Below the pieces are notes generated by a model that saw only the letters and a program-made list of their open reading frames with translations, was not told the DNA's origin and searched no databases. Of a stretch of 64,000 nucleotides of DNA, positions 11,825 through 30,026 are shown piece by piece. The stretch comes from an uncultured Actinomycetota bacterium (GTDB taxonomy: Bacteria; Actinomycetota; Humimicrobiia; Humimicrobiales; Humimicrobiaceae): NCBI GenBank assembly GCA_964563645.1, contig CAZLXJ010000055.1, forward strand, positions 6,920-70,919, in the 5' to 3' direction. The position numbers and the translations under genes are program-made. Each line of letters starts with the position of its first letter. Positions within the stretch are counted from its first letter, which is position 1.

Positions 11825-13009
11825 TTAGAGCCGGTCGATTACATCATCTCTTTCTATTAAATTTGCAAGGGTAACCTTATTTTCCCCAAATTTATTTGAT
11901 ATCGCATCAATCGCTTCAGTAAGATTTTCATTCCCATTATTTTTATTGTATATCAGGCTGCCTGGTTCGGATATACGCTCTAAGCCGCTTACCGATGCTC
12001 CTATAAGCCTTATTTTATTATGGTTTAGATCCATGGACTTTAAAAGTGATACTGTTGCCCTGTATATGTCAAAAATACCATATGTATTTTCACCAAGCAC
12101 CGCCCTCCTGGTGATTGTCCTGAAATTGGAAAATCTTAATTTAAGCGTAATTATTTTACCCCTGTATCCCCTGTACTTCATATTTATGGCGATTTTTTGT
12201 GAAAGAAGGAGAAGTGTGGATTTGAGTGTAGAAAGATCATTAATATCCTTACGGTATGTTATCTCCCGGCCTATCGACTTTACTTCAGGATTCGGATTAA
12301 CTTTTCTATTGTCTATTCCATTAGACATATCATGCATCATCCTGCCAGGTTCGCCGAATCTTGCTTCAATAATTTCCACAGGAGTATCTGCCAGATCTCC
12401 AATAGTATATATACCCATGGATTCAAGTTCTTTATTCGTAACATGTCCGACGCCATGGATATATGATACCGGAAGAAGCCTTATCTTTCTTAGTATCCTG
12501 CCTGTATTCTCCAGCACAGTCAGGCCGTTGGGTTTTCCCATGTTTGAGGCAAGCTTTGCGAGAAATTTATTTGGTCCCAACCCGGCAGAAGATGTAAGGT
12601 TGGTACTTTCGTAAATCCTGCCTTTTATTTTCTTTGCTATTTCAAGTGCATCTCCAAATAACTTTTCACAACCGGTAACGTCGAGGAAACCTTCATCGCA
12701 CCCTATAACCTCTACAAGCGGGGTAAAATTGTAGAATATGCTTCTTATTATCATTGATTCCCTCAAATATTTTTCCATGTTAACAGGTATAAATAAACCT
12801 TCTGGGCAGAGTTTTTTTGCCCTGCTGATAGGCATTCCGGAATGGATACCGTATTTCCTTGCCTCGTAAGAGGCGGTAGAGACCACACCCCTGTTTAACG
12901 GCCCTCCGACAATAAGAGGTTTATTTTTGTATCCGGGATTATCCCTCTGTTCTATCTGGGCAAAGAATGCATCCATATCTACATGGATTATTTTTCTTAA
13001 CTTTTCCAA
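11825..13009 (-). CDS. dinB: DNA polymerase IV (Y-family)
   Basis: IHVDMDAFFAQIE, DEGFLDV, KSIGREITY. Full length at 394 aa. Its start overlaps the dnaE stop by 13 nt. Confidence 0.9.
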   Translation of the reverse strand: MEKLRKIIHVDMDAFFAQIEQRDNPGYKNKPLIVGGPLNRGVVSTASYEARKYGIHSGMPISRAKKLCPEGLFIPVNMEKYLRESMIIRSIFYNFTPLVEVIGCDEGFLDVTGCEKLFGDALEIAKKIKGRIYESTNLTSSAGLGPNKFLAKLASNMGKPNGLTVLENTGRILRKIRLLPVSYIHGVGHVTNKELESMGIYTIGDLADTPVEIIEARFGEPGRMMHDMSNGIDNRKVNPNPEVKSIGREITYRKDINDLSTLKSTLLLLSQKIAINMKYRGYRGKIITLKLRFSNFRTITRRAVLGENTYGIFDIYRATVSLLKSMDLNHNKIRLIGASVSGLERISEPGSLIYNKNNGNENLTEAIDAISNKFGENKVTLANLIERDDVIDRL

Positions 13010-16000
13010 ACCGGCTCCGATCCTGCAAGTATGTTATATCTTAGAGCCTGGTTCCTACAGCTCCTTTTTATTTTTTTTAAAAGTGCCAGATCAATTGCTT
13101 CTCTGCCTGTGATGGTAATATCCCCATCCCTCTGTTCAGGATTTCCTCTTACGATCATAGCAGTGCTCTCTGTAAGTGTCTTGAAATATTTACTGTAAAC
13201 AGGAGGGAAAAACACCGATTCAAATATTCCGTCAATGTCTTCCATGGTGCAGAAGAGCATTTTTTTCCCATCTTTTGTATTTTCAACCCTCCGGTTAAGG
13301 ACAATTCCTGCACAATTAATATCACCGGGGCGGCTATTACCTATATTTTTGATAATTTTGGAGAAGTTGCCGCTTCTGCAGGGATTGAATTTCTCAAGCT
13401 CTTCCCTGAAATAGTCAAGAGGGGGATGGCTTATGCAGAATCCAAGTATTCTGAATTCTTCCTCAATTTTTTCTTCAATGCTGACATTGTTCTTTTTATT
13501 ACATTCAAGTTTAAATACAGGGTTTAATGCTGGGTGAGAGCGGCCGCAGGGAAAGTGTTTGAAGGTCCTGAGATAATAGAATAGTGCAAGGAGATTCTTC
13601 CTGCCTGTTCCGGTATAATCAAATCCTCCAACCCTTATCAGGTTTTCAACAGCATTTTTATTAAGAGAGGACTTCTTGATACACCTGTGATAAAAATCAA
13701 AAAAATCCTTAAAGCAGCCATTTTTTGCCCTTTCTTTTATTATAAGATTTGCCCCTGATGGACCAAGGTCCCTTATGGAAGTTAGCGGGACCCTTATGGC
13801 CTTCCCGTTATCTTCGGGGCTGAATCTGTATTTACTCTTATTTACATCGGGGAGCTTAAGGGCCAGCCCCAGCCTCCGGGCTTCTTCTATGTATTGTGCC
13901 TGCCTGTAATATCCGGAATTATTTGAAAGTATTGAAGATATGAGCTCTGCTGGAAAATATACCTTTAAGTAGGCTATTTTATAAGATATTTCACTGTAGG
14001 CGGCGGCGTGGGCCCTGACAAAGCCGTAACTTGCGAACCTGGATATTAAATCAAAAATACGCCTGGCAAAATCAAGGGAATAGCCTTTTTGAAGAGAACC
14101 CCTGATAAATTTCGACCTCTGCTTTTTCATTTCAGGCGAAGAAAGTCCGGTGATTGCTTTTCGAAGTACATCTGCTTCACTGAATGAGTAGCCTGCTATT
14201 TCTATTGCTATCCTCATAACCTGTTCCTGGTAAAGGATTACCCCATAGGTATCTTTTAAAATGGGTTCAAGATCTTTATGAATAAATACAGTATCTTCTC
14301 TTCCGAATTTTCTTTCTATAAAATTTTTGACCATGCCTGACCGCTGCGGGCCCGGCCGGTAAAGTGAGATAAGAAGGGTAATATCATCAAGGTTTGATGG
14401 TTTTAGCTTTTTTGCCAGAGACCTGATGCCGGAGCTTTCGAGCTGGAATACTCCCAGTGTATTTCCGCCCTTTATAATATCAAATACTTTTTTATCGCCA
14501 TGACTTATTTCAGATATATTTATATCAATATTCCTCCGCTTTTTAAGACTTTTGATTACATCACTTATAAGGCTGAGGCTTACAGAGCTTATAAGGTCTG
14601 TTTTTATAAGGCCGAGTCTTTTAATGCTTTCCATATCGTATTGTGTCATGATCCCTCCTGTATCCGAAAGAGTAAGCGGAACGGTTCCGGTAAGATCTCT
14701 GCGGGATATAATAAATGCAGATGGATGCAATGACATGTGTTTTATGTAATTTTCTATTTTTAAGGCGCAGGATAAGATATTCACAGGGATTCTGCCTTTC
14801 CCGAGAAGACCAGCAGCTTCTTTTATACTTTCCGGCGAAGCCCTCCCGGATGAAAAGCTTTCAGGTAAATCCGGCCTCTTTAATATATCATCGGTCTCAA
14901 ATTTTCCAAGTCCTGCTATCCTTCCTGCCTCTCTTACGGCTGCCCGCGGCCTTAGAGTTGAGAATAGGCATACTCTGGAAACATTTTCTGCCCCATATCT
15001 GGAAGAAAGGTAGGACAGCAGCTCACTTCTTCTCCTGCTGCAGATATCAATATCTATATCAGGGGGGCTTTTTCTTCCGGTGTTTAAAAACCTTTCAAAA
15101 TAAAGATTCTGCTCTACGGGGTCGACATCTGATATTCCCAGAAGATAGGATACAAGGCTTCCGGCAGCAGAACCTTTTCCGCATATGGGTATGTTTCTTT
15201 CCCTGGCAAATCCTGCCATGTCTGCGATTATAAGAAAATATCCGCTGAAACCTGTTTTTTCAATTATTTTGAGTTCCTTCTCAAGTCTGTAAAAGTACCT
15301 GGCATCAGGATAACACCCGAACCTCCGTATAAACCCCGTCATGCAGAGTTTTCTAAGGTAGCCTCCTGGACTGGTCTCTCCTGCAGGTATCTCAAAAAGG
15401 GGAAGCCAGGTCTTTCCCAGGTCCAGGTCCAGGTTGCATTTGCCGGATATGATAGAAGTATTTGATATGGCTTCCGGGATGTCCCGGAACATTGAAATAA
15501 TTTCTTCAGAAGACTTAAAATAATCTTCCCCGCCCGTTATAATCCTGAAAAAGGGATCTTTTTTCATACCCATTGATTTTAATTTGGAAAGATACCTGTA
15601 TATGCAGTAGCTTTTTTTATCTATGTAACGGACATTATTTGTAGCCACAGGAGGCAAATTGTTGGAAAGTGCAAAATTTGTGATTACTTCTGAAAGGTTA
15701 TTGTAAAAGCCGGTCTTTTGGAAGGGGACTCTCTGAATTTCTATATAAAAATCGCCTTCGAATATTTCAATACAGCGGTATGCAGCTTTTAAAGCCCCGT
15801 ACCTGTCTCCATTTTTAAGCAGATCGGGTATCTTGCCGTTAGGGCATCCGCTTAGCCCGATAAGACCTTCGCTGTTTTTGCTTAAATACTTAATATCTAT
15901 TGAAGGAACAGAGTGTTTCTTTTTCAGGTGGGACCTGCTTACTATGCGGCAGAGATTTTTATACCCCCTGAGATTTTTTGCCAGAAGTATCATGTGGGAC

Positions 16001-16227
16001 AGGCCGTCTATGTCAGACAAACATATTTCACATCCTATAATTGGTTTTATATTTGCGGATAAGGCACTTTCATAAAACTTGACCGCTCCACCCATCATAT
16101 ATCTGTCTGTCAGCGCAACAGCCTTCATATTGAGACCGGCTGCTGCTTTTATAAGGTCTCCTATCCTGACGGCGGATTCCATCAGGCTGTATTCGCTGTG
16201 CACATGAAGATGTGTAAAAGGAGTCAC
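12997..16227 (-). CDS. dnaE: DNA polymerase III alpha subunit, short (1076 aa) DnaE-family protein (DnaE2/DnaE3-like)
   Basis: PHP domain HLHVHSEYS, catalytic PPDIDIDI, C-terminal OB fold. No long C-terminal tail. Confidence 0.9.
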   Translation of the reverse strand: MTPFTHLHVHSEYSLMESAVRIGDLIKAAAGLNMKAVALTDRYMMGGAVKFYESALSANIKPIIGCEICLSDIDGLSHMILLAKNLRGYKNLCRIVSRSHLKKKHSVPSIDIKYLSKNSEGLIGLSGCPNGKIPDLLKNGDRYGALKAAYRCIEIFEGDFYIEIQRVPFQKTGFYNNLSEVITNFALSNNLPPVATNNVRYIDKKSYCIYRYLSKLKSMGMKKDPFFRIITGGEDYFKSSEEIISMFRDIPEAISNTSIISGKCNLDLDLGKTWLPLFEIPAGETSPGGYLRKLCMTGFIRRFGCYPDARYFYRLEKELKIIEKTGFSGYFLIIADMAGFARERNIPICGKGSAAGSLVSYLLGISDVDPVEQNLYFERFLNTGRKSPPDIDIDICSRRRSELLSYLSSRYGAENVSRVCLFSTLRPRAAVREAGRIAGLGKFETDDILKRPDLPESFSSGRASPESIKEAAGLLGKGRIPVNILSCALKIENYIKHMSLHPSAFIISRRDLTGTVPLTLSDTGGIMTQYDMESIKRLGLIKTDLISSVSLSLISDVIKSLKKRRNIDINISEISHGDKKVFDIIKGGNTLGVFQLESSGIRSLAKKLKPSNLDDITLLISLYRPGPQRSGMVKNFIERKFGREDTVFIHKDLEPILKDTYGVILYQEQVMRIAIEIAGYSFSEADVLRKAITGLSSPEMKKQRSKFIRGSLQKGYSLDFARRIFDLISRFASYGFVRAHAAAYSEISYKIAYLKVYFPAELISSILSNNSGYYRQAQYIEEARRLGLALKLPDVNKSKYRFSPEDNGKAIRVPLTSIRDLGPSGANLIIKERAKNGCFKDFFDFYHRCIKKSSLNKNAVENLIRVGGFDYTGTGRKNLLALFYYLRTFKHFPCGRSHPALNPVFKLECNKKNNVSIEEKIEEEFRILGFCISHPPLDYFREELEKFNPCRSGNFSKIIKNIGNSRPGDINCAGIVLNRRVENTKDGKKMLFCTMEDIDGIFESVFFPPVYSKYFKTLTESTAMIVRGNPEQRDGDITITGREAIDLALLKKIKRSCRNQALRYNILAGSEPVWKS

Positions 16228-16264
16228 TTAATCCTCACCTGTTTCCATTTTTCTAAAAGAGCGC

Positions 16265-16885
16265 TTACCGCAATGCCCTCTGGACGGCTACCACTTTCCC
16301 CTGGATTAAAGGATCTGATTCCATTATCATGGGCATATATTCCGGATTAGAAGACCTGAGTTCAACATATTTTTCTTTTCTGTAAAATCTTTTTACTACA
16401 GCTTCGTCACCTATAAGCGCTACCACTATGTCACCATTATCTGCTACTGGTTGTGATCGTACTGCTATAATATCCCCGTCGAGTATATGGTCTCCGACCA
16501 TGCTGTCTCCATGAACCCTGAGAGCAAAATCAGCATTTCCCCTTATTATATCGGCAGGGAAGGGGATACGGTCTTCAATGTTTTCTTCAGCAAGGACAGG
16601 CCTTCCTGCGGCTATCCTTCCTATGAGAGGGAGATACAGGGCTTCCTTTTCGGTACCCCGGCCCAGTGTCTCCAGGGCCTTCTTTGTTAGTTTTATGGAG
16701 CGGGCAGATGATCTTCTTTCTATATATCCCTTTCTTTCCAGTGAATACAGGTGATCGGAAATCCCCCTCGGGGAATTGATATAAAGCATACCTGCAAGCT
16801 CCCTTATGGAGGGAGGATAGCTGTTTGCCAGCATATAATTGTATATTTTTTTAAGAACCAGATGCTGTCTGCCGGTAAGTCTCAA
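16265..16885 (-). CDS. lexA: LexA-family repressor, paralog 2 (first gene of the lexA-dnaE-dinB unit)
   Basis: Winged HTH (SIRELAGMLYINSPRGISDHLYSLERKGYIER), AAG cleavage site, GDSM serine and VKRF lysine. TTG start with a GGAGG RBS. Confidence 0.85.
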   Translation of the reverse strand: MRLTGRQHLVLKKIYNYMLANSYPPSIRELAGMLYINSPRGISDHLYSLERKGYIERRSSARSIKLTKKALETLGRGTEKEALYLPLIGRIAAGRPVLAEENIEDRIPFPADIIRGNADFALRVHGDSMVGDHILDGDIIAVRSQPVADNGDIVVALIGDEAVVKRFYRKEKYVELRSSNPEYMPMIMESDPLIQGKVVAVQRALR

Positions 16886-19922: not shown

Positions 19923-19998
19923 GCGGAAGTAGCTCAGCTGGTAGAGCATCACCTTGCCAAGGTGGGGGTCGCGGGTCCGAGTCCCGTCTTCCGCTCCA
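19923..19998 (+). tRNA. tRNA-Gly (anticodon GCC), CCA encoded
   Basis: Hand-folded cloverleaf. Acceptor GCGGAAG/CTTCCGC, D arm GCTC/GAGC, anticodon stem TCACC/GGTGG with loop TTGCCAA, T arm GCGGG/CCCGT with TCCGAGT loop. 76 nt. Confidence 0.95.
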
Positions 19999-20046
19999 TT
20001 TTATTTTATGGAAGATAGGATAATTAATAAATTTTTAGAAAAAGAT

Positions 20047-21981
20047 ATGATAAAGATAAGATTTGAGGACCTGGGCGAGATAAAAGTGAAGAAGGGCACT
20101 TCTGTCAGGGAAGCTGCCTCCATTCTTGACAAAAAATCTGCCAGAATATCTATTGCAGCTGAAATACTGGAAGATGGGAGGGTGCATAAAGATTTACCTG
20201 TTGTGGATTTGACTTATATCCCTGATTCAGATATTTACCTGAAAATACTCTATCCGGGAAATGATGAGAAGTCTTTAGGCATATTAAACCACAGTACAGC
20301 CCATGTAATGGCAGCAGCCATAAAGAAGATTTATCCGGGAGCAAAATTTGCGATAGGCCCGTCGATAAAAAATGGCTTTTACTATGATTTTGAGATAAAC
20401 GGTGATATCTCTGCTGCAGACCTTCCAGGTATTGAAAAACAGATGAAAAAAATAGTTAAAGGGGGCCATCCTTTTGAACGTATGGTTGTCTCAAAAAAAG
20501 AAGCTGCCGGGATATTTAGTGAAAACCAGTATAAACTCGAACTTATTGAAGAAATCCCCGGAGATACCGTGAGCATATACAAGACTGGTGAATTTACTGA
20601 TCTGTGCAGGGGTCCGCATATCCCTTCTTCATCAAGAATAGAAGCTTTTAAGCTGCTCAGCATAGCAGGGGCATACTGGAGGGGCGATGAAAACAATAAG
20701 ATGCTGACGCGGATATACGGAACATCTTTCTACGGGCAGGAGGACCTGAAGCAGTATCTGGACAGACTGGAAAAGGCAAAAAACAGCGACCACAGGAAAA
20801 TAGGGAAAGAGCTTGACCTTTTTAGCTTCCATGACGAGGGCCCGGGTTTCCCGTTCATTCATCCTAAGGGAATGATTATAAGGAATATAATTATCGAATA
20901 CTGGAAGGAAGAACATGACAGGGAGGGCTATAAGGAAATAATTACCCCAATGATCCTGAGCAATGAATTGTGGAAGACTTCGGGACACTGGGATCACTAT
21001 AAAGAAAATATGTACTTTGTTAAAATAGATGATAAAGATTATGCTATTAAGCCGATGAACTGCCCGGGAAATATTATAATCTACAAGAACAGCCAGCATT
21101 CATATAAGGAATTTCCAATGAAATATGCCGAACTTGGCCTGGTGCACAGGCATGAAAAGTCAGGGGTACTGCACGGGCTGTTCAGGGTAAGGAATTTTAC
21201 CCAGGACGACTCCCATATATTCTGCACGGAAGAGCAATTGCCGGACCAGCTGGGAGATGTTGTAGATCTGGTCGAGAGGATGTACCGGGTATTTGGTTTT
21301 GATGATTATCATGTAGAACTATCAACAAGACCTGAAAAAAGCATAGGTTCGTTAGATACGTGGAACAGGGCGGAGGCCATACTTAAGGATGTTGTGGAGA
21401 AAAAGGACATAGACTATACAGTAAACGAAGGAGAAGGGGCATTTTATGGTCCGAAAATAGATTTTCACATAAAGGACTGTCTGGAAAGAACATGGCAGTG
21501 CGGGACCATACAGCTTGATTTTGCAATGCCTGAAAAGTTTGACATTCAATATGCAGGCGAAGACAACAAACGTCACAGGCCTGTTATGATACACAGGACC
21601 GTTCTGGGCAGCATAGAAAGATTTATGGGCATACTTATTGAGCAGTATGGGGGGAACTTCCCTCCGTGGCTGGCGCCTGAACAGGCAGTTATATTGCCAA
21701 TATCGGACAAGTATGAAAAATATTCTGAAGAGGTATTTAAAAAGTTAAAGGAAGAAGGATGCAGGGTAATCATTGATAACAGGGTCGAGTCACTCAATAA
21801 AAAAATTAGAAAGGCCGAATTACAGAAAATACCGTATATGATAATAATAGGGGAAAAAGAGCAGGCTTCCGGCACTATAACTGTCAGAAAGAAATCCGGA
21901 GAGCAGCAAAAGCAGATTATATTGGCAGACTTTCTTGATATTTTTAATAATGCTGTAAAAAACAGAAGTTCTGAATATTAA
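20047..21981 (+). CDS. thrS: Threonyl-tRNA synthetase
   Basis: TGS-like N-terminus MIKIRFEDLG, HSTAHVMA editing motif, class II core. The track ORF start at 19954 lies inside the tRNA and is spurious. Alternative ATG at 20008. Confidence 0.9.
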   Translation: MIKIRFEDLGEIKVKKGTSVREAASILDKKSARISIAAEILEDGRVHKDLPVVDLTYIPDSDIYLKILYPGNDEKSLGILNHSTAHVMAAAIKKIYPGAKFAIGPSIKNGFYYDFEINGDISAADLPGIEKQMKKIVKGGHPFERMVVSKKEAAGIFSENQYKLELIEEIPGDTVSIYKTGEFTDLCRGPHIPSSSRIEAFKLLSIAGAYWRGDENNKMLTRIYGTSFYGQEDLKQYLDRLEKAKNSDHRKIGKELDLFSFHDEGPGFPFIHPKGMIIRNIIIEYWKEEHDREGYKEIITPMILSNELWKTSGHWDHYKENMYFVKIDDKDYAIKPMNCPGNIIIYKNSQHSYKEFPMKYAELGLVHRHEKSGVLHGLFRVRNFTQDDSHIFCTEEQLPDQLGDVVDLVERMYRVFGFDDYHVELSTRPEKSIGSLDTWNRAEAILKDVVEKKDIDYTVNEGEGAFYGPKIDFHIKDCLERTWQCGTIQLDFAMPEKFDIQYAGEDNKRHRPVMIHRTVLGSIERFMGILIEQYGGNFPPWLAPEQAVILPISDKYEKYSEEVFKKLKEEGCRVIIDNRVESLNKKIRKAELQKIPYMIIIGEKEQASGTITVRKKSGEQQKQIILADFLDIFNNAVKNRSSEY

Positions 21982-22099: not shown

Positions 22100-23443
22100 A
22101 TGACACTAAAAGAAAGAGTAAAACTGTATACAACAAAGACTGCTATCAGGGGGGCTCTTAAGGTCCTTCCGAAGTTGTCTGACGAAAAATGGCTGTCGTT
22201 GGTAAAGGGAAGAGTTTACAGAATGAAAAAAAGCTGGGAAAGGGATTTTCTGGAAAACATGCTGGTAAATCTTAAAAGGGGAGCTTCAAGAATGTCTCCT
22301 AAGGTCAGGGAAAAAGTCGTAATGAACCTTATCAATAATGCCATGATACAGGGGCAGCCTAAAAGAATGGAATTTGCAAAAAAATACGGGTTTAATGCTC
22401 CAAATCTTCTCGTAATGTCTCCTACCATGAAATGCAATCTAAGATGCTTCGGCTGCTATGCATGGCAGTATTCCAAGAAGGATGATCTTCCATATGATGT
22501 ATGCAACAGGATAATAGAAGAAGCAAATGACATAGGTATATATTTCTTTGTTATTACAGGCGGGGAACCTTTTTACTGGGATCATATATTTGATTTCCTT
22601 GAGAGGCACAATGATTCATTCTTCCAGATATATACCAATGGCACGCTCATTGATGAGAAAGCAGCAAAAAAGCTAGCAGAACTGGGTAATGCCATACCAT
22701 GCATAAGTGTCGAGGGTTTTAAAAAGGAAACTGAAGCAAGGAGAGGAAAGGGCACATGGGACAAGATAATGAGCGCAATGGATAATCTTGCAAATAACGG
22801 AGTTCTTTTTGGTTATTCAGTTACGGCTACCAGATCCAATAATGACCTGGTAGTAAGCGATGAATTTATAGACTTTTTTGTTAAAAAAGGTGCTTTTATA
22901 GGATGGTATTTTAATTATGTACCGATAGGAAGGGAACCGGATCTTGATCTTATGCCTACTCCAGAACAGAGAGATTACAGGAGGAGTAAGATACTGGAGA
23001 TAAGGAGAAAGAATGATATTGTAGTAGCAGATTTCTGGAATGACGGCCATCTGGTAAATGGATGCATGGCAGGAGGGAAAAATTATCTCCATGTAAATGT
23101 AAATGGTGATGTTGAGCCCTGTGTTTTCATACATTATGCCGGCGACAATGTAAAGGAAAAGAGCCTTGTAGAAATTCTTAATTCAGATTTCTTCAGGGCA
23201 TTCAGAAAGAGGCAGCCTTATACCGAAAATCACCTCAGGCCATGTGCAATAATAGATAATCCGAAGGTGCTCCGGGATATTGTAGCAGAAACAGGTGCAT
23301 ATCCCACCCACGATGGGGCCGAAACTATAATAGGATGTCTTGCAAAACCCCTTGACAGGTATGCTGAGGAATATAAGAAAATAGCTGATGTGGCATGGAA
23401 AAAGGAATACCTGCCTGAAGAAGATACTGAAGAGGCGGTATAG
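22100..23443 (+). CDS. Radical SAM enzyme with C-terminal auxiliary-cluster (twitch/SPASM-like) region, paralog 1
   Basis: CNLRCFGCY (CX3CX2C), ITGGEPF, YTNGTLID, GCMAGGKNYLHVNVNGDVEPCVF. Clear paralog of 28563-30026. Confidence 0.85.
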   Translation: MTLKERVKLYTTKTAIRGALKVLPKLSDEKWLSLVKGRVYRMKKSWERDFLENMLVNLKRGASRMSPKVREKVVMNLINNAMIQGQPKRMEFAKKYGFNAPNLLVMSPTMKCNLRCFGCYAWQYSKKDDLPYDVCNRIIEEANDIGIYFFVITGGEPFYWDHIFDFLERHNDSFFQIYTNGTLIDEKAAKKLAELGNAIPCISVEGFKKETEARRGKGTWDKIMSAMDNLANNGVLFGYSVTATRSNNDLVVSDEFIDFFVKKGAFIGWYFNYVPIGREPDLDLMPTPEQRDYRRSKILEIRRKNDIVVADFWNDGHLVNGCMAGGKNYLHVNVNGDVEPCVFIHYAGDNVKEKSLVEILNSDFFRAFRKRQPYTENHLRPCAIIDNPKVLRDIVAETGAYPTHDGAETIIGCLAKPLDRYAEEYKKIADVAWKKEYLPEEDTEEAV

Positions 23444-23580
23444 ACAAATAATATTAATATTAGTATAATTTCCAACCATTGAAAAATAGTATAGATATTT
23501 AAGAATATAATTAAGTAGAAATCATCTATTTCTCACCAGATAATGGCTGAAAAAAGTTTATTGATCTGGTTATATAAATA

Positions 23581-23612
23581 ATAGGTAGATGGTTCATCTG
23601 CCTATTTTTTTT
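23581..23612 (+). terminator. Leader terminator/attenuator upstream of infC (L20-leader-like position)
   Basis: ATAGGTAGATG-GTT-CATCTGCCTAT (11 bp, one G-U pair) followed by T8, 12 nt before the infC RBS. An upstream helix ACCAGAT/ATCTGGT lies at 23535-23570. Confidence 0.5.
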
Positions 23613-23638
23613 AAAAACATAATGGAGGTGAGGGATTT

Positions 23639-24148
23639 ATTAACGACAGGAGAATCAGGACAAACAGTCAGATTAGAGCTCCAGAGGTGAGATTGATAAA
23701 TGATGACGGCAATCAGATAGGAATAATTTCCGTAAGGCAGGCCCAGCAGATTGCAGATGAAAAAGGTCTTGACCTTGTAGAGGTATCCCCAAAAAGCAAG
23801 CCTCCGGTATGCAAAATAATGGATTTTGGGAAATATAAATATAAATTGGAGATATCCGAGAAACTAAAGAAGAAAAAACAATCTCATATTGTTGTGAAGG
23901 AAATAAAATTAAGACCCAAAATCGACACAAATGACCTCAATACAAAGAAAAGGCAGATAGAAAAATTCCTCAAGAACGGGAACAAGGTAAAGATAACCAT
24001 AATGTTCAGGGGTAGGGAGATAGTCCATAAACAACTGGGAATGGATATTCTCGAGAATATTATGGATGATCTGGGCGGTCATTCGTTTGTAGAGCAGAGG
24101 CCAAAACTTGATGGGTATAATATGATTATGGTTCTTGCCCCTTCATAA
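23639..24148 (+). CDS. infC: Translation initiation factor IF-3, ATT start codon
   Basis: In-frame extension INDRRIRTNSQIRAPEV matches the conserved IF-3 N-terminus. A GGAGGTG RBS lies 8 nt upstream of ATT at 23639. The track start (GTG at 23687) is internal. Confidence 0.9.
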   Translation: MNDRRIRTNSQIRAPEVRLINDDGNQIGIISVRQAQQIADEKGLDLVEVSPKSKPPVCKIMDFGKYKYKLEISEKLKKKKQSHIVVKEIKLRPKIDTNDLNTKKRQIEKFLKNGNKVKITIMFRGREIVHKQLGMDILENIMDDLGGHSFVEQRPKLDGYNMIMVLAPS

Positions 24149-24209
24149 AATAACAGTAAATTAAGAATATTTAATAGGACAGCAAAATTATTCAGGAAGG
24201 ATGTAGCTC

Positions 24210-24404
24210 ATGCCAAAATTAAAAACGCATAAAGGAGCAGCAAAAAGGTTTAAAATAACGGGCAGTGGTAAGATTATGAGGAGGAGGGCTTTTAAAAGCC
24301 ATATATTGACAAAAAAAGATGCAAAAAGGAAGAGAAGACTGGGTAGTGATACAGAGGTATCATCTGCCGATTCAAAAAGAATTAAAAGGCTTCTTGGGAG
24401 ATAA
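24210..24404 (+). CDS. rpmI: 50S ribosomal protein L35
   Basis: [21 protein letters not shown]. Confidence 0.95.
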
Positions 24405-24423
24405 TAGAAAGGTGTGATCTGAA

Positions 24424-24780
24424 ATGACCAGGGTAAAAAGGGGAACTGTAAAGAATAGGCGACATAAAAAGGTCCTAAAAGAAGCCAGGGGATACCGCAG
24501 CTCCAGCAGCAGGACTTTTAAATCGGCTAAACAGCAATTGATGAAATCAATGAGTTATTCATACAGGGATAGAAAAAACAACAAGAGAAATTTTAGAAGA
24601 CTGTGGATAACAAGAATAAACGCTGCGGCCAGATTAAACGGATTATCATACAATGAATTTATAAACGGACTGAAAAAGGCAGATGTAGATATTAACAGGA
24701 AGATGCTTTCAGAGGTAGCTATAAGTGATCCTGATGCTTTCAAACAACTGACTGATTTAGCAAGGGAAAAATTAAGTTAG
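24424..24780 (+). CDS. rplT: 50S ribosomal protein L20
   Basis: MTRVKRGTVKNRRHKKVLK..GY. Confidence 0.95.
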   Translation: MTRVKRGTVKNRRHKKVLKEARGYRSSSSRTFKSAKQQLMKSMSYSYRDRKNNKRNFRRLWITRINAAARLNGLSYNEFINGLKKADVDINRKMLSEVAISDPDAFKQLTDLAREKLS

Positions 24781-24796
24781 ATATACATGGATATAT

Positions 24797-25846
24797 ATGG
24801 ATCAGAATAGCACTAAAACAATAAGTGAGATTGAAAATAGAATTGATAAAGAGATCAAAAATCTCCGTTTGGATATTAAAGGTTCCGCTGATATTAAGAG
24901 ACTCGGATTGCTGAGAAGCAAATATCTTGGCAAAAAAAGCTATTTACTCTCGATCCAGAAAAATATAGGGTCCCTTACTTCTGACCTGAAGCCGGTTGTA
25001 GGAAAGATTGCAAACGCTCTTAGAAAAGAGATTGAGAAGATAATCGGCGAAAGGGAGGCACAGATCAGGGAGCTGGAGCATGAAAGAAAGATGAGGGGGG
25101 AGGCTTTAGACCTTACGCTACCTGGAAGAAAACCCCTTACGGGAAGTACCAGCATTATATCCAGGGTTACAGAAGATATAGAAAAAATTTTTATAGGAAT
25201 GGGTTATGAAATAGCAGAGGGTCCCGAGGTAGAAACTGATTATTATAATTTTGAAGCACTTAATACTCCCAGAGATCATCCGGCAAGGTCACTCCATGAT
25301 ACAATGTTTATAGGTGAAAATATTCTGCTTCGGACGCATACTTCCCCCGTTCAGATAAGATACATGGAACAAAACAGGCCGCCTATTGCAATAATAGTAC
25401 CCGGGAAAGTGTACAGGAAGGACTACGACGTATCACATACGCCTATGTTTACCCAGATAGAGGGGCTTCTAATAGATAGAGGTATTAACTTCGGAAATCT
25501 TAAATGGACGCTGGAAGCATTTGTCAGGGAAATATTCGGAAGTGACAGAAAGGTAAGATTCCGACCTCATTATTTTCCATTTACAGAACCAAGTGCGGAA
25601 GTAGACGTATCATGTAAAAATTGTAACGGTAAAGGATGCAGGGTATGCTCATGGAAAGGCTGGCTTGAAATACTTGGTGCAGGTATGGTTGATCCCAGAT
25701 TATATAAATTTGTAAATTATGATCCTAATAAAGTGAGCGGTTTTGCTTTTGGAATAGGCATTGAAAGAATATGCATGCTGAAATACGGTATTGATGATCT
25801 GAGATTATTCTTTGAGAATGATCTCAGGTTCATAAAGCAATTTTAA
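24797..25846 (+). CDS. pheS: Phenylalanyl-tRNA synthetase alpha subunit
   Basis: HPARSLHDTMFI, LRTHTSPVQIR, FRPHYFPFTEPSAEVD, GFAFGIGIERI. Confidence 0.95.
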   Translation: MDQNSTKTISEIENRIDKEIKNLRLDIKGSADIKRLGLLRSKYLGKKSYLLSIQKNIGSLTSDLKPVVGKIANALRKEIEKIIGEREAQIRELEHERKMRGEALDLTLPGRKPLTGSTSIISRVTEDIEKIFIGMGYEIAEGPEVETDYYNFEALNTPRDHPARSLHDTMFIGENILLRTHTSPVQIRYMEQNRPPIAIIVPGKVYRKDYDVSHTPMFTQIEGLLIDRGINFGNLKWTLEAFVREIFGSDRKVRFRPHYFPFTEPSAEVDVSCKNCNGKGCRVCSWKGWLEILGAGMVDPRLYKFVNYDPNKVSGFAFGIGIERICMLKYGIDDLRLFFENDLRFIKQF

Positions 25847-25889
25847 TTGATATCAATATAAATATTTTATTGGGAAGGAATACGCAATA

Positions 25890-28292
25890 TTGAAGGTAAC
25901 CCTTAGCTGGATAAAAGAATTTTTAAAAGACACTGATCTGGATCCGATGGAAACAGCCCGGGTCCTGACTATGGGCGGCATAGAAGTAGAAAAAGTAGAA
26001 TTTATGGCCTCCGGGTTTAAAAAAATAATTATAGGAAAGATAAAAAGTTTTAAAGAGCATCCCAGCGCAGAAAGATTATCATTATGCAGGGTGGACTCCG
26101 GAGAAAGAGACCTGAATATAGTATGCGGAGCAACTAATTTCAAGCAGGGTGACAAGGTGGCACTTGCTGTTGAAGGTGCAAAAATTGGTGATTTTACCAT
26201 TAGGAAGAGGAAAATAAGAGGAGAATATTCGGAAGGGATGATGTGCTCCGAGAAAGAGCTGGGCTTATCTTCTGCGTCGGAAGGAATTATGATACTTGAC
26301 GAGGATCTTCCTACCGGAGAAGATTTTGCAAAAGCCGTAGGCCTGGATGATGTAGTTTATGATCTTGAGATAACACCAAACAGGCCCGACTGCCTCAGTA
26401 TTATAGGTATTGCAAGGGAAATAAGTGCAATGACAGCAAATGAGCTGGTTTTTCCTGATTTTAAGCTTGAAGAAAATATAGTCATTGGGGAGGAACTTGA
26501 TATTGAGATTGAGGATTACAAACTGTGCCCCAGGTATTCTGCTATGGTATTTGAAAATATTGATATGGGAGACTCACCGGCATGGCTTAAAAACAGGTTG
26601 ATAATGTGCGGCATAAGACCTATAAACATAATAGTAGATCTTACAAACTATGTAATGGTTGAAACCGGACAGCCCATGCATGCATTTGATAAGGATCTTC
26701 TATTTTCAAATAGAATAATAGTCAGAAATGCTGTAAACGGTGAAGAATTAAAGACAATTGATGAAACGTTAAGGACACTGGATGGAAATGAGATTGTAAT
26801 CGCAGATGAAGAAAAAGCTATTGCGCTTGCAGGTATCATGGGGGGCAAGGGAACAGAGATAAACAGTAATACAGGCAAGGTTCTTCTTGAATCTGCAAAC
26901 TTTTACGGGCCTTCTATTATGAAAACTTCCAAAAAGCTGGGTTTGAGATCCGAAGCATCCAACCGTTTTGAGAAGAAGATAGATCCCGGGCTTACCGTGT
27001 TCTCAATTAAAAGGTTTTATCAACTCTTAAATGAGATTACAGGTTATAAAAATATAAGTCCCTTATATGATAATTATCAAAAAAGAGACAGGGAGCGTAA
27101 TATTGTATTAAGGCCAGAAAAGCTAGAGCAGGTACTGGGCCAGTCAATAGACGCCTCAAGGATTTCAGATATATTAAGTTCGCTATGTATAAAAAATAAA
27201 GTAAATAATGGCATTCTTAATGTAAGAGTCCCTTCGTTCAGGTTTGAAGATCTTGAAAGGGAGATAGACCTTATTGAAGAAGTCGCGAGAATTTATGGAT
27301 ATAATAATATAATATCCAGACCGGCGCTTCACAGCGGAAAAATAGGAAGATACAGCAGGGAGCAGTCAAATGTTAGAAGTTTGAGAGGATTTCTTGCAGA
27401 TATTGGGCTGAATGAGGTAATCAATTATTCTTTTATAGGTCTTGATGAATTTAAATTAAATATGCTTGACAGGGAAGAGGAGTATAATAAATATATTGAA
27501 ATAATAAATCCAATAAATGAAGATTTTAGAATAATGAGGACATCACTGCTGCCTTCTATGCTGGGAAATGTAAAAACCAATATTAACAGGAATATAAAAG
27601 ATATAGCTATATTTGAAATATCAAGAGTTTTTATAGACACAGGCATGGAATTACCGGACGAAATACTGAAGCTTGGAATACTTCTTAGCGGTAAGGCAAA
27701 TCAGAAAAGCTGGATAGGGGATGAAAGGGATTTTGATTTCTTTGATATTAAAGGAATACTTGAAGGTATGGAGGAAAGATTCAATGTTAGTCCCGAAATG
27801 GAAGCCAGAAAAAGGGAATACAGCTTTTTCCATCCGGGTATCAGCGGTTGCATAGCTTTAGGTAATGAAGAAACAGGAATAATCGGTAAGGTGCATCCGG
27901 CAATAATGGAGAAAATGGAAATAGGCCAGGATGCTTACTATGCTGAAATAAACATTGACATTCTAAATAAGAATTTAAAAGTTTCTGAAAGCTATGAGAA
28001 AATTTCACCTTTTCCTGCCATTGACATAGATATTGCGGTAGTAGTTGATGAAAATGTAAGAAACAAGGATTTGATATGCGAGATAAAAAGAAGCGGTTCA
28101 GGAATTTTGAGAAGTGTAAGGCTTTTTGATATATACCACGGTGAACAGATAGCAAAGAACAGGAAGAGCATGGCATATTCAATGAGCTTTAGAGAAAAAA
28201 GCAGGACATTGAAAGATAGCGAAGTGGAAATAATAGTAAACAGGATAATAGAAAACCTTGAAAAGAAATTCAATGCAGAACTGAGGGCATAA
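25890..28292 (+). CDS. pheT: Phenylalanyl-tRNA synthetase beta subunit
   Basis: MKVTLSWIKEFL N-terminus, tRNA-binding, B3/4, B5 and FDX-ACB regions. TTG start with a GGGAAGGAA RBS. Confidence 0.95.
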   Translation: MKVTLSWIKEFLKDTDLDPMETARVLTMGGIEVEKVEFMASGFKKIIIGKIKSFKEHPSAERLSLCRVDSGERDLNIVCGATNFKQGDKVALAVEGAKIGDFTIRKRKIRGEYSEGMMCSEKELGLSSASEGIMILDEDLPTGEDFAKAVGLDDVVYDLEITPNRPDCLSIIGIAREISAMTANELVFPDFKLEENIVIGEELDIEIEDYKLCPRYSAMVFENIDMGDSPAWLKNRLIMCGIRPINIIVDLTNYVMVETGQPMHAFDKDLLFSNRIIVRNAVNGEELKTIDETLRTLDGNEIVIADEEKAIALAGIMGGKGTEINSNTGKVLLESANFYGPSIMKTSKKLGLRSEASNRFEKKIDPGLTVFSIKRFYQLLNEITGYKNISPLYDNYQKRDRERNIVLRPEKLEQVLGQSIDASRISDILSSLCIKNKVNNGILNVRVPSFRFEDLEREIDLIEEVARIYGYNNIISRPALHSGKIGRYSREQSNVRSLRGFLADIGLNEVINYSFIGLDEFKLNMLDREEEYNKYIEIINPINEDFRIMRTSLLPSMLGNVKTNINRNIKDIAIFEISRVFIDTGMELPDEILKLGILLSGKANQKSWIGDERDFDFFDIKGILEGMEERFNVSPEMEARKREYSFFHPGISGCIALGNEETGIIGKVHPAIMEKMEIGQDAYYAEINIDILNKNLKVSESYEKISPFPAIDIDIAVVVDENVRNKDLICEIKRSGSGILRSVRLFDIYHGEQIAKNRKSMAYSMSFREKSRTLKDSEVEIIVNRIIENLEKKFNAELRA

Positions 28293-28337
28293 ACTTTTTA
28301 TTTAAATAATTTAAAATTATTCTAACATGTCAGGAGT

Positions 28338-28572
28338 TTGATTAAAGCATCACCAGACCCCCTGGCAGCCACAAGCCCTGATGGGAAAATAATAGATGTT
28401 AATGAAGCTATAGTAAAAGTTATCGGTGTTTTCAGGAAGAATCGTATTGGTACAGATTTTTCCAGCTATTTTACGGGACCTGAGAATTCCCGCGAAGGAT
28501 ACCGGTTTGTCTTTTCCATAAGCAGAGTAACAGATTATCCATTAACTATTCGGTACTCCAATTCAGCTTTTC
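28338..28572 (+). pseudogene. PAS-domain gene fragment (relic of a sensor protein)
   Basis: ASPDPLAATSPDGKIIDVNEAIVKVIGVFRKNRIGTDFSSYFTGPENSREGYRFVFSISRVTDYPLTIRYSN is a recognisable N-terminal two-thirds of a PAS fold. No usable RBS or start. Homology stops where the convergent radical SAM gene ends. Confidence 0.55.
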
Positions 28573-30026
28573 AAATAATATTTTTTCCAGACAGGATCAA
28601 AAAATTCTGCAAGTTCCCGGTCGTATTTTATCATCTTTTCATGAATATCTGATCTATATAGTAGATCATGGGCTGCCCTGTCTTCGGGTTCAGGCTCATA
28701 TTCCTCTATCCAATCCATAAACTGTTGATGGTGGTCTCTATATGGACATGGTCTTAACAGATTCCCATTTTCTGTTGCTCTTTTTTGTCCGTAACCAAAA
28801 TCTGTCTGCCATTTGCGTATTGCTTTAAAGAAAGCAGAGTTCCAGATATCATCAAGGGTCGTCTTTTTGTATCTGTATATATCGTATATGTTGCCAGCAG
28901 AGTAAGGGGTGAAGACGCAGGGCATTACTTTTCCATTCCAGTCTATATAAAAGTACCCGCCATCTCTTCCTGCTGCTATACATCCGTTCACCAGAGGTCC
29001 ATGGTTCCAAAAGTCTATGAGGAAATACCTTTTTTTCTCAATCTTGTTCCAGATCTTATTATAAAAATCAACTCTCTGAGAAGCAGTAGGCATGAGATCA
29101 AAATTAGGGTTTCTACCAATGGGAAGATATTGGAAGAAAAAACTGTAAAAAATTCCCTGTTCCTTAAAGAAAAAATCTAAAAATTTATCATCCAGCACGC
29201 TGGAGCAATTATACTTATTTACAGTAACTGATATACCAAATGGCAGCCCTGCATCCCGCATGAGGCTCATGGATTTTAACACTCTATTGAAGGTACCCCT
29301 TCCTCTCCTCTTATCAGTTGTTTCACGAAGTCCTTCAACGGAAAAGGCAGGAGTAAGGTTTTTGCATTCGGAAAGTTTTAATATCGTTTTCTTGTCTATG
29401 AGAGTTCCGTTTGTAAAAGACAAAAAAAGGCAATCTGGATTTTCTTTTGCTATTTCCATTATTCCTCTACCATCCGAAAAATAGGCAAAAGGTTCTCCTC
29501 CCGAAAAAACTATAAGTTTTATGCCCCATGTCTTTTTTACATCTTTTACAAGCTGGTCCAGAATATCCCATTCAAGTTTTGAGCTTATGGTTTCTGAACT
29601 TGCATAGCAGTCCCTGCATTTAAGATTACAGTAATGTCCAGGGCTTATCACTAAAAACCAGGGGGGATCACAGTGATATTTTTCATGGAATTCCGTTACT
29701 CCTGAATTATTCTGTCGGGGTATTATAAGTGATTTACTCCAGAGCCCGGCAATTACCTCTACAGCATCCTTTTTCAATATGCCCTTCTTAATAGACTCCT
29801 CCACCGAGTGTAGTATGGAATCTATCATCAATATTTTTTGTTCCTGTATACTTTTACAAGAATTATAGAATCTGCTTTTTTTATTTGTTTCAAGATATGA
29901 AGAGATTTTTCCCTTTAGATACCTGAGAAGTATAATCCTTAAAAAATCGTTGAAGAGAAGAAAGGTTATAAACCTGTATAGCAAATTACTGTTTTTTAAA
30001 GAAACCATTATCTTTAAAAAATTCAT
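28563..30026 (-). CDS. Radical SAM enzyme with C-terminal auxiliary-cluster region, paralog 2
   Basis: CNLKCRDCY (CX3CX2C), FSGGEPF, FTNGTLID, GCIAAGRDGGYFYIDWNGKVMPCVF. Collinear with 22100-23443. Confidence 0.85.
   Translation of the reverse strand: MNFLKIMVSLKNSNLLYRFITFLLFNDFLRIILLRYLKGKISSYLETNKKSRFYNSCKSIQEQKILMIDSILHSVEESIKKGILKKDAVEVIAGLWSKSLIIPRQNNSGVTEFHEKYHCDPPWFLVISPGHYCNLKCRDCYASSETISSKLEWDILDQLVKDVKKTWGIKLIVFSGGEPFAYFSDGRGIMEIAKENPDCLFLSFTNGTLIDKKTILKLSECKNLTPAFSVEGLRETTDKRRGRGTFNRVLKSMSLMRDAGLPFGISVTVNKYNCSSVLDDKFLDFFFKEQGIFYSFFFQYLPIGRNPNFDLMPTASQRVDFYNKIWNKIEKKRYFLIDFWNHGPLVNGCIAAGRDGGYFYIDWNGKVMPCVFTPYSAGNIYDIYRYKKTTLDDIWNSAFFKAIRKWQTDFGYGQKRATENGNLLRPCPYRDHHQQFMDWIEEYEPEPEDRAAHDLLYRSDIHEKMIKYDRELAEFFDPVWKKYYLKS

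Follow-up and report, generated by a model that had tools for sequence, protein, structure and literature searches.

Introduction

Bacterial membrane-spanning lipids and their ether derivatives, brGDGTs (branched glycerol dialkyl glycerol tetraethers), are in wide use as palaeoclimate proxies, and their producers are poorly known. Two membrane-spanning lipid synthases (Mss) have been validated, Tmari_0825 of Thermotoga maritima and WP_129545148.1 of Thermoanaerobacter ethanolicus, and anaerobic expression of the T. maritima enzyme in Escherichia coli yielded C32/C33 diabolic acids (PMC13159169). The T. ethanolicus enzyme is of the iso-diabolic-acid type, with omega-to-omega coupling, and is presumably a member of the same family, since both validated enzymes were aligned together in that paper. 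Here, we analyzed a stretch of 64,000 nucleotides (the window) from an uncultured Actinomycetota bacterium of the family Humimicrobiaceae (contig CAZLXJ010000055.1 of assembly GCA_964563645.1, positions 6,920 to 70,919), in which two paralogous radical S-adenosylmethionine (SAM) genes, hereafter mss1 and mss2 with the products P1 and P2, bracket a block of translation genes.

The presence of Mss in the class Humimicrobiia is already published. According to the available text of a 2025 Black Sea study (PMC11868695), 9 Humimicrobiia metagenome-assembled genomes (MAGs) have both Mss and ElbD homologs, and in euxinic water Actinobacteriota are more abundant than any other Mss carriers, so that the central point of the present analysis was known before. 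As far as that text describes them, these MAGs are alike to our host in organism class, in gene family and in the absence of Ger. They differ in that a brGDGT potential was suggested from their ElbD homologs, whereas the ElbD-like protein found here is without a reductase domain. Neither the existence of two subfamilies nor a thrS-mss-infC synteny is mentioned in the available text of that study, and in the available portions of the related literature we found no account of two subfamilies in one genome, of this synteny or of the missing ether machinery. The general picture of Mss is unchanged by the locus. It lends support to the idea, already in print, that anaerobic Humimicrobiia from sediment and water column are likely to make lipids of the diabolic-acid type. 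It adds that one small genome carries two Mss subfamilies, of which one lacks a characterized member, and that throughout the family the core mss copy has a fixed place within a cluster of translation genes.

Both paralogs are homologs of a validated membrane-spanning lipid synthase

The T. maritima ArgC sequence, taken from the PDB 1VKN alignment, was used to reach Thermotogota genomes, and one of them was identified as T. maritima by an ArgC copy 100% identical to the ArgC of 1VKN. The sole strong P1 homolog in this genome is a 482-aa open reading frame (ORF) at 850.5-851.6 kb, the next-best T. maritima match being only 24% identical. Exact look-up returned this ORF as AAD35906.1/AGL49750.1, annotated as 'AstB/chuR-related protein'. 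In a preprint (10.64898/2026.06.23.733905), T. maritima Mss is given as AGL49750 and Ger as AGL49404, and the difference between the two accession numbers, 346, equals that between Tmari_0825 and Tmari_0479 (825 - 479). Given the name in the preprint and the gap that fits the Tmari tags, AGL49750 is the experimentally validated enzyme, and we compared it with P1 and P2.

P1 shares 49% identity with T. maritima Mss in an alignment of 374 aa that contains a single gap (E 1e-136), and P2 shares 35% identity over 370 aa (E 4e-70). The published definition of an Mss homolog is E <= 1e-50 and at least 30% identity to a validated Mss (PMC13159169), and both paralogs exceed it. An earlier note on this DNA, made from the letters alone, had suggested a family that includes both the archaeal tetraether synthase Tes/GDGT-MAS and the bacterial Mss; the bacterial half of that suggestion is therefore right, and P1 also clusters with the Thermotogota Mss in our tree (see below).

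Overall, the resemblance to T. maritima Mss consists of collinear homology along the full length, the CX3CX2C and GGE motifs, a similar helical N-terminal extension and three C-terminal cysteines. P1 and P2 are likewise collinear with each other (36% identity over 396 aa, E 2e-77, BLASTP), at exactly the positions read off before, and both match Pfam Radical_SAM (E-values 1.5e-22 and 4.2e-19). All motifs quoted in the earlier note were found again, namely CNLRCFGCY/CNLKCRDCY, GGEPF, TNGTLID, GCMAGG/GCIAAG, EPCVF/MPCVF and LRPCAIID/LRPCPYRD. In an alignment of 65 family sequences including both paralogs (A1), the invariant columns include P1 C112/C116/C119, G154-G155-E156, C341 and C382, while C322 is present in at least 90% of the sequences. 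Similarly, in alignment A2, the P2 residues C370 and C427 never vary, while at least 90% of the sequences have C349. The only C-terminal cysteines common to the paralogs are these three (P1 C322/C341/C382; P2 C349/C370/C427), and the Pfam SPASM match of both is partial, covering profile positions 1-57 of 67. With only three shared C-terminal cysteines, the auxiliary region is twitch-like and not a full SPASM domain, and 'twitch-like', the wording of the earlier note, is a fair description. T. maritima Mss has exactly three C-terminal cysteines as well (331, 350 and 391), which align with those of P1 and P2 in the NGC, EPCVF and RPC motifs. Homology to the validated enzyme and conservation of the motifs are thus directly observed, as is the synteny described further below.

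AlphaFold models of both proteins reached a mean predicted local distance difference test score of 93.4 and are alike in predicted architecture. The helical N-terminal region anticipated for both is seen in both models, spanning residues 3-96 in P1 and 2-117 in P2, and sequence similarity between the paralogs becomes detectable only from P1 residue 72 and P2 residue 90 (BLASTP). The recorded protein for the P2 gene (P0383) is only 382 aa long, 74% of the ORF at 28563-30026 (-). Orthologs of P2 are 480-487 aa long and align from residue 3-13 on, so the source gene call appears to be N-terminally truncated.

Taken together, P1 and P2 are very probably both Mss-family radical SAM enzymes that couple lipid tails into membrane-spanning lipid. 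We infer their chemistry from the T. maritima and T. ethanolicus enzymes. The [4Fe-4S] cluster held by the CX3CX2C motif would cleave SAM reductively, and the resulting 5'-deoxyadenosyl radical would abstract a hydrogen at the omega or omega-1 carbon of the fatty-acyl tail of a membrane glycerolipid. By analogy with Tes, one auxiliary Fe-S cluster bound by the three conserved C-terminal cysteines would then assist the C-C joining to the tail of a second lipid, and the product would be a diabolic-acid-type alpha,omega-dicarboxylic chain spanning the membrane.

Several points weigh against this assignment. Neither NCBIfam nor Pfam contains an Mss-specific model against which P1 and P2 could be scored. 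The host is uncultured and known from MAGs alone, and the activity of both proteins is a prediction; in the case of P2 it is drawn from 35% identity, and the labelled members of its subfamily are all uncultured. The occurrence of Mss homologs and the detection of membrane-spanning lipids do not match in every case (PMC13159169). Finally, that Ger and an ElbD reductase are absent, as described below, was judged on a genome of 89.5% completeness.

The locus also departs from that of T. maritima Mss in several respects. The host belongs to an uncultured actinobacterial lineage with a genomic G+C content of ~37% and is not a hyperthermophile, its genome harbors two family members and no Ger, neither P1 nor P2 adjoins a TetR gene or a second radical SAM/SPASM gene, and P1 is embedded in the thrS-infC translation cluster. 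A third SPASM-type gene of the host genome (342 aa, contig C48) was considered as a candidate Gms-like partner or Mss partner and rejected; its identity to the radical SAM protein encoded next to T. maritima mss is only 27% over the core (E 6e-14).

P1 and P2 probably represent two subfamilies

The Mss-like family comprises 657 representatives at E < 1e-30 after 50% clustering, and the nearest relatives of P1 are labelled Actinomycetota and Candidatus Humimicrobiaceae. Within the class, an Mss-like gene was found in 71/87 genomes covering all 19 genera represented, while true P2 orthologs (at least 48% identity) were found in 17 of the 87, over 10 genera. We computed a maximum-likelihood tree of 122 sequences with support from the Shimodaira-Hasegawa-like approximate likelihood ratio test (SH-aLRT). 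Sequences of the P1 type form a clade (SH-aLRT 100) within a 22-row clade (98) that includes the Thermotogota Mss. Those of the P2 type form a clade (100) within a separate 26-row clade (100) that is without a validated member. Labelled members of the P2 clade are a Pacearchaeota MAG, 'bacterium' and Chloroflexota/Anaerolineae (44-49% identity), all of them uncultured. The P2 subfamily spans Humimicrobiia, Chloroflexota/Anaerolineae, unclassified bacteria and one DPANN archaeon.

A constraint that forces the P1 and P2 types into one clade was not rejected in an approximately unbiased (AU) test (delta log-likelihood 50.6, p = 0.22), which was run without tree row L085, a SPASM ORF neighbouring mss that grouped with the outgroup. 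Two old subfamilies are therefore the favoured reading of the split and not a proven one. A recent duplication within the lineage is disfavoured by the strong local support in the maximum-likelihood tree, but the AU p value of 0.22 leaves the separation unproven.

Since P1 groups with the Thermotogota Mss, coupling of the T. maritima (diabolic-acid) type is most likely for P1. For P2, which belongs to the patchy second subfamily, the most likely activity is tail-to-tail coupling of the same class, with another preference as to chain or position. Compared with the P1/Thermotoga type, the P2 subfamily carries short specific insertions, GG (356-357), DIYR (382-385), YGQKR (412-416) and TE (418-419), which cluster around the auxiliary cysteines. 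A lipid-binding hydrophobic region has been described near the C terminus of Mss (PMC13159169), and the position of the insertions together with this region makes a difference in substrate or coupling position plausible.

The same observations also lend some weight to an alternative in which P1 alone is an Mss and the P2 subfamily is a neofunctionalized relative acting on another hydrophobic substrate or forming another cross-link, for example a second bridge between already-coupled chains (as in Gms) or a modification of a non-lipid substrate. P2 is only 35-36% identical to Mss and P1, falls in a separate and well-supported clade, has its specific insertions beside the auxiliary cysteines and occurs patchily (17/87 genomes) and in variable contexts, and in one case a B12-binding radical SAM gene lies only 5 bp upstream of the subfamily member. 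On the other hand, P2 keeps every family-invariant residue and the three auxiliary cysteines, its predicted architecture is the same as that of P1, it still falls within the published definition of an Mss homolog, and there is no conserved partner gene that would indicate another pathway. We consider this alternative unlikely, although it is the most serious competitor to an Mss role for both proteins.

A more speculative extension of that Mss role can be offered tentatively. The P2 subfamily might be a distinct lipid coupler with another regiochemistry or chain class, or one that introduces a second cross-link, in which case genomes that have P1 alongside P2 would give rise to a richer repertoire of membrane-spanning lipids than a single Mss permits, and the fixed thrS-mss1-infC arrangement might point to membrane-spanning lipids as a constitutive, growth-linked part of the membrane in Humimicrobiaceae, in contrast to Thermotoga and Thermoanaerobacter, where they are a stationary-phase adaptation.

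The class Humimicrobiia holds more than two types of the Mss-like family, as judged from the predicted proteins. Several of its genomes have extra, shorter Mss-like ORFs of 360-390 aa that are 31-35% identical to P2 (for example G027:C2:299768-300556 and G054:C4:28608-29441), and others have additional Mss-like copies of 480-516 aa.

Tes as a likely mechanistic analogue

Tes/GDGT-MAS (7TOL) is, like Mss, a radical SAM enzyme that links two membrane lipids tail to tail through a C(sp3)-C(sp3) bond, and a Tes-like mechanism has been postulated for Mss (review PMC13459092). The mechanistic analogy is likely a real one, and similar size, the radical SAM fold with C-terminal Fe-S ligands and the same kind of coupling would also fit a placement of P1 and P2 in the archaeal Tes/GDGT-MAS family as makers of tetraethers. 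This second half of the suggestion in the earlier note did not survive comparison. Neither P1 nor P2 matched 7TOL at 1e-3 in a phmmer search of PDB sequences. The family profile reached 7TOL at E 1.6e-11 over positions 116-221 only, a stretch of ~105 residues in the radical SAM core, and at rank nine, with SkfB (7e-28), SuiB, PqqE, anSME, CteB and BlsE among those ahead. In Foldseek searches of the PDB, SuiB, SkfB and anSME came first for both models at a template modelling (TM) score of ~0.5; 7TOL was not among the top 50 for P1 and appeared for P2 at rank 34 with TM 0.40 and a root-mean-square deviation of 16.5. The SPASM domain of Tes is able to bind two auxiliary [4Fe-4S] clusters (PMC13459092), whereas only three C-terminal cysteines are conserved family-wide in the alignments of P1 and P2, and Tes substrates are isoprenoid ethers. 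Consistent with this, Tes was described as only 'remotely related' to Mss, with no Tes homolog in Mss-bearing species (PMC13159169). The searches thus show no specific relationship in sequence or fold outside the radical SAM core. What links the proteins to Tes is analogous chemistry within the SPASM/twitch radical SAM superfamily and not membership in one family, and a Tes assignment is highly improbable.

It is just as improbable that P1 and P2 are maturases of ribosomally synthesized and post-translationally modified peptides (RiPPs) or of cofactors from the SPASM/twitch class (SuiB, SkfB, PqqE, NirJ/AhbD, anSME): their best solved-structure relatives by sequence and fold are SkfB, SuiB, PqqE and anSME, and their top partial NCBIfam matches are NirJ2 and AhbD, but identities of 18-21% and a TM of ~0.5 amount to superfamily-level similarity, the NirJ2/AhbD heme d1/heme b maturase, sactipeptide, mycofactocin and PqqE models were all rejected with scores far below their cut-offs (the best, NirJ2, at 97.6 bits versus 500), the validated Mss is much closer (49% and 35% identity), and no precursor-peptide, protease or transporter gene lies nearby. 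The absence of such neighbours had been put forward against a RiPP maturase from the start, and this argument holds: among the window ORFs and their Pfam matches, the neighbours of P1 and P2 are housekeeping genes, with no peptide-, transporter- or protease-like gene among them.

Lipid genes of the host point to probable ester-linked products

The host genome (1.63 Mb) has genes for a ketoacyl synthase of the FabF type and for three PlsY acyltransferases (Table 1), so the substrate class of Mss should be available. Three PlsY paralogs are an unusual redundancy for a genome of this small size (1.6 Mb). A check for a plsA/Ger-like ether-lipid gene, proposed in the earlier note, came out negative: DUF2229, the marker of Ger/PlsA, had no match in the 89.5%-complete host genome and was matched in the T. 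maritima control. Matches to NAD_binding_4 in the host are partial and lie in ORFs of ~330 aa, typical of epimerases.

The host also encodes an ElbD-like protein of 857 aa, probably the 'ElbD homolog' reported for Humimicrobiia. This protein has no NAD_binding_4 reductase domain, and there is no reductase gene nearby; its gene (locus L131) is surrounded by rpoD, dnaG, PPDK and a GT2 glycosyltransferase gene. For making ether bonds, ElbD needs the reductase domain. With no Ger/PlsA and an ElbD-like protein devoid of a reductase, ester-linked membrane-spanning lipids of the diabolic-acid type are probably likelier products than brGDGT tetraethers. The lack of recognizable ether-forming machinery in the host genome tempers the published suggestion of brGDGTs via ElbD in this class.

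Lipid-related genes also occur next to homologs from other lineages. For example, a PlsC-type acyltransferase gene lies directly upstream of an Mss homolog of the P1/Thermotoga clade from another lineage (L133:752-2939, JGI 3300048494 contig), and a FabH-like gene and TetR regulators are found near members of the P2 subfamily. The B12-binding radical SAM gene noted above encodes 414 aa, and a gap of 5 bp separates its end from a P2-subfamily gene (L134:4752-7497, JGI 3300028908 contig), which is followed by TetR and RND efflux genes; the B12-binding protein is a possible lipid methylase or ring-synthase partner.

Genomic context of the two genes

Features of the locus and of the lipid genes are collected in Table 1. 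As stated in the earlier note, P1 sits between thrS and infC. In the window, an LCP-family gene and thrS lie to one side of the two paralogs, with a sigma-70 factor gene and arg genes to the other. The order thrS-mss1-infC-rpmI-rplT-pheS-pheT was recovered in 11/11 sampled genomes of the same family, representing six genera with 77-81% identity to P1. The infC-rpmI-rplT-pheS-pheT block stands beside mss1 in all 11 of these loci and thrS in 10, the contig of the 11th ending at mss1. In a genome from another family of the class, the mss homolog lies elsewhere. Given this synteny, P1 is an old, fixed resident of the cluster and not a recent insertion, that is, a conserved and vertically inherited copy held between thrS and the infC leader.

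Table 1. Coordinates of the two mss genes, their motifs, neighbouring elements and host lipid genes. Positions refer to the window unless a host genome (G000) contig is given.
Feature	Position	Strand	Evidence or remarks
mss1 (P1), predicted Mss-family radical SAM enzyme, conserved Humimicrobiaceae copy	22100..23443	+	ORF, 447 aa
P1 CX3CX2C motif, C112/C116/C119, predicted ligands of radical SAM [4Fe-4S] cluster	22433..22456	+	Invariant in alignment A1
P1 auxiliary-cluster region, C322/C341/C382, partial SPASM / twitch-like	23063..23245	+	Pfam SPASM match, residues 322-373
mss2 (P2), divergent predicted Mss-family paralog, second subfamily	28563..30026	-	ORF, 487 aa
P2 CX3CX2C motif, C133/C137/C140	29607..29630	-	Invariant in alignment A2
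P2 auxiliary-cluster region, C349/C370/C427	28746..28982	-	Alignment A2
thrS, upstream neighbour of mss1	19954..21981	+	Pfam tRNA-synt_2b, HGTP_anticodon, tRNA_SAD
Promoter-like site TAGACA-17-TATAAT, downstream of mss1 stop codon	23441..23469	+	Consensus scan, 11/12 matches, pattern match only
L20-leader-like element upstream of infC	23507..23615	+	Match to Rfam RF00558 along the whole model, E 3e-4, 36 bits versus gathering score 58.7
12-bp hairpin and T-run within L20-leader-like element	23580-23606	+	Terminator scan
infC	23687..24148	+ (in infC-pheT block)	ORF
infC-rpmI-rplT-pheS-pheT block between the paralogs	23687..28292	+	ORFs
Short ORF with sub-threshold PAS_4 match ('PAS relic')	28338..28652	+	PAS_4 20.2 bits versus cut-off 23.1, E 7e-4
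PlsY (glycerol-3-phosphate acyltransferase) paralogs	G000 C18:8805-9368, C24:11264-11782, C39:31533-32060		
ElbD-like 857-aa protein, AMP-binding, PP-binding (acyl carrier protein) and PlsC-type acyltransferase domains	G000:C23:4369-6942	-	Locus L131

The translation genes downstream of mss1 appear to come with regulatory elements of their own. The promoter-like site that follows mss1 is probably the promoter of the infC operon, and the hairpin and T-run inside the L20-leader-like element may also terminate mss1 transcription. With these three elements in place, the infC operon appears to keep its own control region downstream of mss1.

The context of mss2 is less constant. In the window, mss2 is convergent to pheT, while its orthologs in the other genomes sampled, those of the same genus included, were in no case found beside the sigma gene or pheT, and no conserved neighbour or partner gene emerged among the genomes compared. 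The short ORF between pheT and mss2 runs on the strand opposite to mss2 and shares its last 90 nt with the mss2 3' end. Of the PAS gene relic that had been proposed here, the ORF is present, but its resemblance to PAS_4 stays below the cut-off.

In T. maritima, too, mss is a stand-alone gene convergent to pheT, as mss2 is in the window. Loci of the Thermotoga family (L094, which is T. maritima G010:C1 ~849-853 kb, and L085, L092, L093 and L095) have the order pheT(+), TetR(-), mss(-) and a 323-aa radical SAM/SPASM gene(-). Linkage of mss to the pheST/infC translation cluster is thus recurrent across two phyla, which could be chance. Elsewhere in the window (11825-16885, all on the minus strand), genes for LexA (16265-16885), a DnaE-type polymerase (12997-16227) and an ImuB/DinB-like protein of the IMS family (11825-13009) form an arrangement that resembles an SOS mutagenesis cassette.

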